From a virus (Duplodnaviria > Heunggongvirae > Uroviricota > Caudoviricetes), in the IMG/VR virus record IMGVR_UViG_2698536369_000009: a stretch of 20,170 nt of DNA; one strand, given 5' to 3'. This document shows, in pieces, positions 18,001-20,170 of this stretch. Within the stretch, counting starts at the first letter, position 1, and every line of letters begins with the position of its first letter. Position numbers: made by a program.

Positions 18001-20170
18001 TGCGATGATTAACCCGGAGGACGGCAACACCACGCCGTTATTTGTGGCGCAGGGGAATCAGTTGTTCATGAACGATGTGTTCCTGAAGCGGCTGTTTGCG
18101 GTGAGTATCACCTCGTCCGGCAATCCCCCGACGTTTTCCCTGACGCCGGAAGGGAAGCTGACAGCCAGGAACGCGGATATCAGCGGAGCAATTACCGCGA
18201 ATACCGGCACGCTCAATAATGTCACCATTAACGAGAACTGTGTCATCAGAGGGAAACTGTCTGCAAACCAGATTGAAGGCGACCTGGTGAAGACGGTGGG
18301 GAAAGCCTTTCCCCGGAATAACAGTTATGCCAGCGGGACGGTAACCGTCACAGTTTACGATGACCAGGGCTTCGACCGGCAGATTATCATTCCCCCGGTG
18401 CTGTTTCGCGGGACGAAACACCAGAATTTCAACAGCCCGAATCAGCAGTCGTACTGGTATTCCACCTGTAAGCTGCAGGTGCTGAAGAACGGGGTTGAGA
18501 TTTTCCATGAACCGGCAACGGATGTCAGCCGGGTGTTCTCATCGGTGATAGATATGCCGGCAGGGCGGGGTCATGTCACCCTGACGTTTAATGTGTCGTC
18601 GGCCGGTGCGAACAACTGGACGCCGACAACGTACATCAGTGATTTACTGGTTGTGGTCATGAAAAAATCCACGGCAGGGATCAGTATCAGCTGACGGTTT
18701 ATTAACCCGGACGGGCACCTCAGGAGGTGCCTTTTTTATTGACTGAAAACAAAGAGGTAATCATGCGGCATTTATACGCAACGATATTATTGTTTACTAC
18801 CCTGCTGGCAGGAATTGCCTTTCCTGCACAGGCTGAAAGCGGACACGGTGCATTTTCCGTGGGATATGCTCAGGTTCACCCGGGCGGCGTACCGGCATTG
18901 TCCGGTACCGGTGCGCGTGCAGGTGATTTAAAAGGGATTAATGTGAAATACCGTTATGAGTTCACGGATCACCTGGGCGGCATTGTCGCGCTGAGTTATG
19001 CATCGGTGAAGAAAAGTGACACGATGAAGACGGGTGAAAATACCTTCCATTATGAAAGCCTGCGCGGTCGTTATGTCAGTCTGATGGCCGGCCCTGTCTG
19101 GCAGCTCAGTGAGCGGGTCAGTCTCTATGGCATGGCCGGGATGGCGTACACCCGCTGGTCTGACAGTGTTCAGGATTACCGGCGTGATGAAGTGAAACCG
19201 GGGTATGTGAAGGAGACCACCACCGCCAGTGATGGTCATACTGCGCGTCATCTGTCGCCGGCCTGGAATGCCGGGATTCAGTTCAGTCCCGTAGAGACGG
19301 TGGTTATTGACCTTGCTTATGAAGGTTCCGGCAGTGGCGACTGGCGCACTGACGGTTTCATCGTGGGTGTCGGCTATAAATTCTGATTAGCCAGGTAACA
19401 CAGTGTTATGACAGCCCGCCGGTTCAGGCGGGCTTTTTTGTGGGGTGAATATGGCAGTAAAGATTTCAGGTGTGCTGAAAGACGGCACAGGAAAACCAAT
19501 ACAGAACTGCACCATTCAACTGAAAGCCAGACGTAACAGCACCACGGTGGTGGTGAACACGGTGGCCTCTGAAAATCCGGATGAGGCAGGGCGTTACAGC
19601 ATGGACGTCGAGTATGGTCAGTACAGCGTCACTCTGTTGGTGGAGGGATTCCCTCCATCACATGCCGGGACCATCACCGTGTATGAAGATTCTCAACCGG
19701 GGACGCTGAATGATTTTCTCGGTGCCATGTCGGAGGATGACGTCCGGCCGGAGGCAATGCGTCGTTTTGAACTGATGGTGGAAGAAGCGGCGCGTCACGC
19801 AGAGGAGGCGAAGAAGAATGCCGGAGAGGCGGAGACATCAGCGAGGAATGCCGGCATATCAGCCAGTCAGGCAGAAGAGAGCGCTGCAAATGCTGACACT
19901 TCAGCAGGGGATGCATCGGAGTCAGCCCGGCAGGCGGCAGAAAGTGCAGCCGCTGCAAAGCAGTCAGAGGAGGCGTCCTCGTCCTCGGCCTCTGCGGCCG
20001 CTCAAAAAGCCAGTGAGTCATCACAAAGTGCAGCAGATGCTGAATTGTCAAGAAAGACGGCAGAAAGTGCAGCCGGTAATGCAGCCAGGGATGCAACGAC
20101 CGCAACAGAAAAAGCCCGGGAGTCAGCAGAAAGCGCACAGTCAGCGGAACAAAGCAGGATAGCGGCGGAA

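Follow-up and report, generated by a model that had tools for sequence, protein, structure and literature searches.

The window analysed here, the whole 20,170-nucleotide stretch of a Caudoviricetes virus record (IMG/VR IMGVR_UViG_2698536369_000009), carries near its 3' end, on the + strand, a gene for an Ail/Lom-family outer-membrane protein (lom) between two tail genes. The upstream neighbour is J (15218..18694), which encodes the 1,158-residue tail tip attachment protein, as recognised by the Pfam J domains and by a match to lambda J in the PDB (8iyk, E 0). The downstream neighbour is stf, of which the N-terminal part of the side tail fibre is present before the gene runs off the window (19451..20170; Pfam phage_tail_N, E 7e-70), the start being at 19451 and not at 19442. 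Between them lie, in order, an intrinsic-terminator hairpin (T1, 18713..18737), a short A-rich leader read from the sequence (18738..18762), lom itself (18763..19386; ATG start, 207 codons, TGA stop) and a second intrinsic-terminator hairpin (T2, 19413..19439). The lom ATG is preceded at a distance of 5 nt by a Shine-Dalgarno sequence, AGAGG (18753-18757), and the motif GAGAGGT is unchanged in every lom allele group, including that of lambda. An alternative GTG start at 18727 was rejected, as it falls within the stem of T1 and lacks a Shine-Dalgarno sequence. Many complete E. coli genomes contain a 901-nt region covering the locus at 100% identity, and there J is annotated as gpJ, stf is annotated as such, and the gene between gpJ and the tail fibre is annotated as "Ail/Lom family outer membrane beta-barrel protein". 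The position between J and stf given in the initial annotation is confirmed: the feature is real and lies where it was placed. The locus is an allele of lambda lom in the J/stf slot of an E. coli lambdoid prophage, a textbook locus in a common prophage that was already known. What is added here is small and consists of covariation support for T1, a conserved lom-T2-stf island and a controlled negative promoter search.

The 207-residue Lom precursor matches the Pfam Ail_Lom profile (PF06316) over its full length (positions 1-199 of 199; E 8.5e-51, 173 bits against a cutoff of 23) and also matches the generic outer-membrane β-barrel profile OMP_b-brl (PF13505; E 1.8e-15). Among solved structures, Lom aligns end to end with PDB 9wso ("Outer membrane protein lom", E 1e-82), a structure of full-length lambda Lom that contains two Lom chains (chain C being an example). 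The other chains of this entry were compared with J, Stf and Tfa and are not relatives of them, and the entry was not found in the literature searched. More distant matches are those to Ail (3qra) and OmpX (1qj8 and other entries), which are both classical 8-stranded barrels. A single-sequence AlphaFold model of Lom had a pLDDT of 33 and was unusable. The fold is accordingly assigned by sequence homology, an eight-stranded antiparallel β-barrel being predicted by relation to 9wso, 3qra and 1qj8 only. The N-terminus (MRHLYATILLFTTLLAGIAFPAQA followed by ES; codons 1-24, 18763-18834) has the layout of a typical Sec signal peptide, with a basic n-region (MRH), a hydrophobic core of 17 residues (mean Kyte-Doolittle value of 2.07) and alanine at positions -3 and -1 of the site AQA-ES; this assignment was made from the n-region, hydrophobicity and cleavage-site residues. 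The alignment of mature Ail to Lom begins at residue 27. Lom ends in an aromatic residue, the signal for insertion by BAM, and the C-terminal sequence GFIVGVGYKF is the same in all alleles except L035 (78% identity), which ends in GIGYRF. Lom is thereby predicted to be a Sec-exported member of the Ail/Lom/OmpX family of 8-stranded outer-membrane β-barrels. The initial annotation had proposed an Ail/Lom/PagC-family β-barrel with a signal peptide, and the searches against Lom, Ail and OmpX, with the full-length match to PF06316, the end-to-end match to 9wso and the AQA-ES site, agree with that proposal.

Relatives of Lom encoded on 80 viral contigs were used as a comparison set, and their identities to the window protein fall into groups of ~95-100%, 87%, 78%, 66% and 47-48%. 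The dN/dS ratio between lom alleles is 0.14-0.38 and the gene is under purifying selection. Substitutions and indels cluster in three segments that, by analogy with Ail and OmpX, would correspond to surface loops 1-3, while the last 25 residues are identical among alleles that share the conserved island described below and differ in L035. Lambda Lom (lambda 18965-19585; 206 residues versus 207 in the window) is encoded at the same position between J and stf and is 66% identical to the window protein over the mature sequence. The two proteins diverge in the signal peptide and in surface loops 1-3, and they are identical in the last 25 residues. Ail from Yersinia, OmpX from E. coli, and PagC and Rck from Salmonella belong to the same Pfam family or clan as Lom. 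The homology of the Ail and OmpX barrels to Lom extends over the whole mature protein and includes the C-terminal aromatic residue, although with E values of only 1e-12 to 1e-13. Mature Ail and OmpX have ~150 residues and shorter loops, and the genes for Ail, OmpX, PagC and Rck are located on chromosomes or plasmids and have regulated promoters of their own.

Papers on lambda assign to Lom a role in attachment to epithelial cells and their invasion, and assign serum resistance to Bor (PMC1151598, PMC3594210). That lambda Lom promotes adhesion to buccal cells is attributed to Vica Pacheco (1997), as cited in PMC3594210. Of the two functions assigned to the family in the initial annotation, adhesion is reported for lambda Lom itself, whereas serum resistance holds at the level of the family (Ail, Rck and PagC), that of lambda coming from Bor (PMC1151598, PMC3594210).

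Both of the intrinsic terminators that had been proposed to bracket lom were recovered by the terminator scan. The T1 stem (18713-18732) has the sequence GGGCACCT-CAGG-AGGTGCCT followed by TTTTTATT, with 8 bp, a CAGG loop and a ΔG of -12.6 kcal/mol. It starts 19 nt past the J stop codon and ends 30 nt short of the lom ATG, and its run of six T's (18732-18737) includes a first T that closes the stem. The T2 stem (19413-19434; AGCCCGCC-GGTTCA-GGCGGGCT followed by TTTTTG) also has 8 bp, of which 7 are G-C, and a ΔG of -17.6 kcal/mol. It starts 26 nt past the lom stop codon, and its run of six T's (19434-19439), the first again closing the stem, ends 11 nt before the stf ATG. Hence, each is a G+C-rich stem-loop with a U-tract, as is characteristic of intrinsic terminators. 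Relative to shuffled sequences, the fold z-scores in 51-nt contexts are -2.3 for T1 and -2.7 for T2. With a lenient terminator pattern three sites were found in the lom sub-region versus 2.3 expected, which is not rarer than chance. A strict filter (a stem of at least 8 bp with at least 5 G-C pairs and at least 5 uninterrupted T's) was passed by three + strand sites only in the 20-kb window, at 6105, 18713 and 19413, all of them directly after stop codons in the ~3% of the sequence that is intergenic as estimated from the annotation. Two of the three strongest + strand terminators in the 20 kb thus flank lom. The third (6105-6125; ΔG of -16.8, 9 bp in the scan, then GTCTTTTTTC) directly follows the major capsid gene in the late operon.

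A hairpin equivalent to T1 is present 28-30 nt upstream of the lom ATG at every examined locus except the rearranged L031; that of L034 was missed by the hairpin finder and the same hairpin was seen by eye. The stem has been kept in evolution by compensatory change: within the homologous T1 family 3 of the 8 pairs have changed on both sides (A-U to G-C through a G-U intermediate, C-G to U-A, and A-U to U-A), with 98% of alignment cells paired. The covariation score was reached by none of 500 shuffles, and pairing falls to 41-61% in slid registers. T1 is therefore conserved and covarying and not a chance hairpin. Most loci have T2, and it is missing where a different gene lies downstream or where the contig is cut. 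Its changes are few, one-sided and compatible with G-U pairing, apart from one variant that breaks a pair, and T2 is consequently too conserved to be informative for covariation. From these comparisons we regard T1 and T2 as real, selected features.

The post-J hairpin of lambda (CGTCCG-GGAA-CGGGCG followed by TTTTATT) ends 29 nt before its lom ATG, and its sequence is unrelated to that of T1 (CGTCCG/CGGGCG versus GGGCACCT/AGGTGCCT). In contrast, the lambda terminator after lom (AGCCCGCCG-GAAC-CGGTGGGCT followed by TTTTTG) is homologous to T2, and the 26-nt spacer between lom and the terminator is identical in the two phages. In 1983 Luk and Szybalski reportedly described terminators in tandem (t'J1-t'J4) past the J gene of the lambda late operon, with positions at ~39% and 40.4% of the map. 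The first two, t'J1 and t'J2, would correspond to the hairpins that flank lambda lom, and so to T1 and T2; the lambda records examined contain no annotation of t'J terminators.

In the sliding identity profile, T2 falls inside an island of high nucleotide identity (19300..19560), which also takes in ~80 nt of the lom 3' end and ~100 nt of the stf 5' end. The island is 92-98% identical between the window, lambda and the 48% Lom group, whereas its flanks are 50-75% identical, and T2 is thus shared even by lom alleles whose proteins are only 48% identical. Synonymous divergence (pS) within the island is 0.24-0.42 over the last 30 lom codons and 0.17-0.41 over the first stf codons, compared with ~0.7 elsewhere. 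The island probably reflects both a recombination joint that has been homogenised and constraint on the N-terminus of Stf. In the 78% lom group (L035-L037), other DNA takes the place of T2 and stf and opens with an extended -10-like sequence, TTGGTATAAT (locus positions ~2125-2225), so that in some phages a mosaic breakpoint coincides with the lom 3' junction.

Several other candidate RNA or operator elements around lom were set aside. No Rfam family reached its gathering score in the window, and the sub-threshold matches to Atu_C8 and Trp_leader merely overlie the terminator hairpins. In the gap between the lom stop codon and T2 there is a 13-nt perfect palindrome, TAACACAGTGTTA (19397-19409), which together with T2 forms a double hairpin with a U-tail. 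As a selected hairpin or operator the palindrome was rejected, as natural variants break it and are uncompensated. The microRNA-size RNA 24B_1, located past the lom gene of phi24B (PMC4426718), and the small RNA svsR (PMC12803456) belong to different phage contexts.

The initial annotation regarded the bracketed gene as a lysogenic-conversion cassette. In this proposal the flanking terminators hold, and the search for a promoter of its own upstream of lom came out negative. In four allele groups, the 500 nt preceding lom were scanned with a weight matrix, and the best scores were 5.6-7.5, none of them above chance (the median best score of shuffled sequences is 7.5, and known promoters score 9-13), although consensus scans of this type miss weak or activator-dependent promoters. 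No sigma-70-like site was found on the + strand of the whole window, and on both strands of positions 1-20000 such matches are strongly depleted (1 versus 10.2 ± 3.4 in dinucleotide shuffles). By eye, there were no matches to sigma-54, sigma-E or PhoP-box sequences for lom. The space itself is limited, since only 30 nt separate the T1 stem from the lom ATG and these are taken up by the T-tract, the A-rich leader and the Shine-Dalgarno sequence. Further upstream, the last 200 codons of J contain no conserved synonymous sites, synonymous change being saturated up to the stop codon, so this stretch does not conceal a conserved promoter or antiterminator. Two individual candidates were rejected. 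TTGACT (18739-18744) as a -35 element has no -10 element at 15-19 nt, would place the start inside the reading frame and is not conserved in the 48% group; the extended -10-like sequence TGAAAAAAT at the end of J (~18660-18668) is upstream of T1 and is not conserved in the other groups. A TATTAT -10-like hexamer follows T1 in lambda and has no equivalent in the window. It lies in the T-tract past the lambda hairpin (score 3.4) and is a fair -10 element, so that a promoter may overlap T1 in that phage. The literature searched yielded nothing on a lom promoter or transcription start.

The same scan did detect a promoter 3.5 kb away, which serves as a positive control. The gene sodC, encoding a Cu,Zn superoxide dismutase (15084..14557 on the - strand; Pfam Sod_Cu, E 4e-32), is preceded by a putative promoter, TTGGTA-16-TAGGAT (score 9.3), with an extended -10 element, TGGTATTAT (~15203-15176, - strand), and its stop codon is followed immediately by a 10-bp terminator (14550-14527, - strand). 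The whole unit (14527-15217) is a complete reverse moron between I and J, and the I/J slot that it occupies holds gp22/gp23 in HK97 and HK022.

Morons have been defined by a promoter of their own and usually by a deviant GC content (Juhala et al. 2000, as cited in PMC3594210). The lom gene resembles morons in other respects. It is an extra gene between two genes that are adjacent in related phages, stf following J directly in HK97, where the slot is empty, and cor occupying the slot in HK022. Like the HK97 and HK022 morons (cor and gp22/gp23), it is an accessory gene among tail genes with a terminator directly 3' of it, in this case T2. Unlike them, lom has no promoter match and no deviant base composition (GC of 0.50-0.57, compared with 0.50-0.55 in the adjacent 3' end of J and 5' end of stf), and it has instead a terminator 30 nt before its ATG. 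In HK022, the cor moron combines a terminator with a long AT-rich upstream region, and the window lom has no such region. Hence, on sequence criteria lom is an additional gene in a slot known to take morons, equipped with a terminator and lacking a recognisable promoter or compositional signature.

The absence of a promoter scoring above chance, the 30-nt gap behind T1, the saturated synonymous sites of J and the sodC control lead us to the view that lom looks embedded in the late operon and read through by Q-modified polymerase. We consider it likely that lom in this prophage is a late-operon allele of lambda lom that lies between two Rho-independent terminators and has no recognisable promoter of its own. 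The literature on lambda lom covers late expression as well as expression in the lysogen (PMC7067206, PMC1151598, PMC2147009). According to this proposal, RNA polymerase that has been modified by Q and comes from pR' would read through both T1 and T2 in lytic growth, which would put lom on one transcript with J and stf. With the prophage repressed and Q absent, T1 would halt polymerases arriving from upstream, and T2 would keep any polymerase that had transcribed lom out of stf and tfa. Expression of lom in the lysogen, if any, would depend on a weak, non-consensus or activator-dependent promoter or on leakage through T1. The protein would be exported by Sec and cleaved after A24 at the AQA-ES site, and BAM would insert it as an 8-stranded barrel, as expected from its family. 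The variable surface loops 1-3 may then contact host cells or matrix, as reported for the adhesion of lambda Lom and for Ail.

An alternative is that lom is an autonomous cassette, driven by its own promoter and insulated by T1 and T2, with constitutive expression from the repressed prophage that does not depend on the late operon. In its favour, lom and bor of lambda are described as expressed in lysogens (PMC7067206, PMC1151598), and phi24B lom is expressed to a similar extent whether the lysogen is stable or undergoing induction (PMC3342100). An array analysis of a lambda lysogen did not detect lom and stated that little is known of its promoter (PMC2147009). The presence of T2 downstream and the empty J/stf slot of HK97 are also in accord with a separate cassette. 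However, the short distance from T1 to the lom ATG, the failure to find an above-chance sigma-70 match in the 500 nt upstream in any of the four groups or anywhere on the + strand of the window, and the saturation of synonymous sites in J up to its stop codon all argue against an independent promoter, as does the clear promoter that the same method assigns to the sodC moron. The GC content of lom, which matches that of its flanks, and the lack of an AT-rich upstream region such as that of cor count against it as well, and we hold this explanation to be rather doubtful.

A second alternative, to which we give similarly limited credence, dispenses with lysogeny altogether: the hairpins would be partial terminators or 3'-end stabilisers of mRNA that tune the J, Lom and Stf messages during lytic growth. 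The comparable hairpin after the capsid gene (6105-6125, ΔG of -16.8) speaks for this, as insulation in the lysogen would make no sense there, and so do the occurrence of T1 behind J in every allele group and the annotated putative terminators in the HK97 tail operon. It leaves unexplained, however, why the two strongest terminators of the tail region bracket precisely the accessory gene. It is also compatible with, and not exclusive of, the proposed location of lom in the late operon.

A much less probable variant of the late-operon proposal is that lom is no autonomous moron and that its conserved leader, in which 29-30 nt and a Shine-Dalgarno sequence follow the terminator, makes T1 a gate, at which read-through of tail-region transcripts, regulated by a host or phage factor, a small RNA or temperature, sets the level of Lom in the lysogen. 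In a still weaker variant, the ultra-conserved lom 3' end together with T2 would give rise to a small RNA derived from the 3' untranslated region. That Lom serves the phage and not bacterial virulence, for instance by changing the cell surface late in infection or in lysogeny so as to affect adsorption or exclusion in the manner of HK022 cor, seems equally improbable, since the suggestion is based on genomic position (cor, annotated 'phage exclusion', sits in the same slot), and although lom is wired into the late operon without its own promoter and loops 1-3 differ among alleles, the relatives of Lom are adhesins and serum-resistance factors and the literature searches found no experimental report of exclusion by Lom.

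The locus is widespread. At least part of the 901-nt region is matched in 4,340 of 5,426 complete genomes, at up to 13 places per genome, and in Stx1a- and Stx2a-converting phages the region is 99.2-99.8% identical and annotated as Lom. E. coli O145:H28 strain RM13514 contains the same prophage, with lambda-type head and tail genes, the reverse sodC between I and J, lom, and stf/tfa in that order. On the 3' side of stf/tfa the RM13514 prophage (L002, 22612-25769) encodes the type III effectors nleB2, nleC (partial), nleH (frameshifted) and nleF, and the window therefore comes from an effector-carrying lambdoid prophage. The receptor-binding C-terminal part of its J protein (residues 861-1158; 17798-18694) matches PDB 9wca/9wcb ('A8 gpJ 713', E 8e-184), and the match to the lambda J C-terminal domain (8xcj, E 3e-139) is weaker. 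The J protein of this prophage may therefore have a receptor specificity other than that of lambda.

Genes of the Lom type are found in lambdoid prophages of most E. coli, including those that carry Shiga toxin and effectors, and they are routinely listed as lysogenic-conversion or virulence factors. The statement that lom is a self-contained moron expressed in lysogens should be qualified, because all the lom groups examined, lying 28-30 nt behind T1, have no recognisable promoter, and the moron claim thus still lacks a mapped one, in line with PMC2147009. Should the gate at T1 prove true, a regulated attenuator would govern a prophage surface protein that is present in most E. coli genomes.
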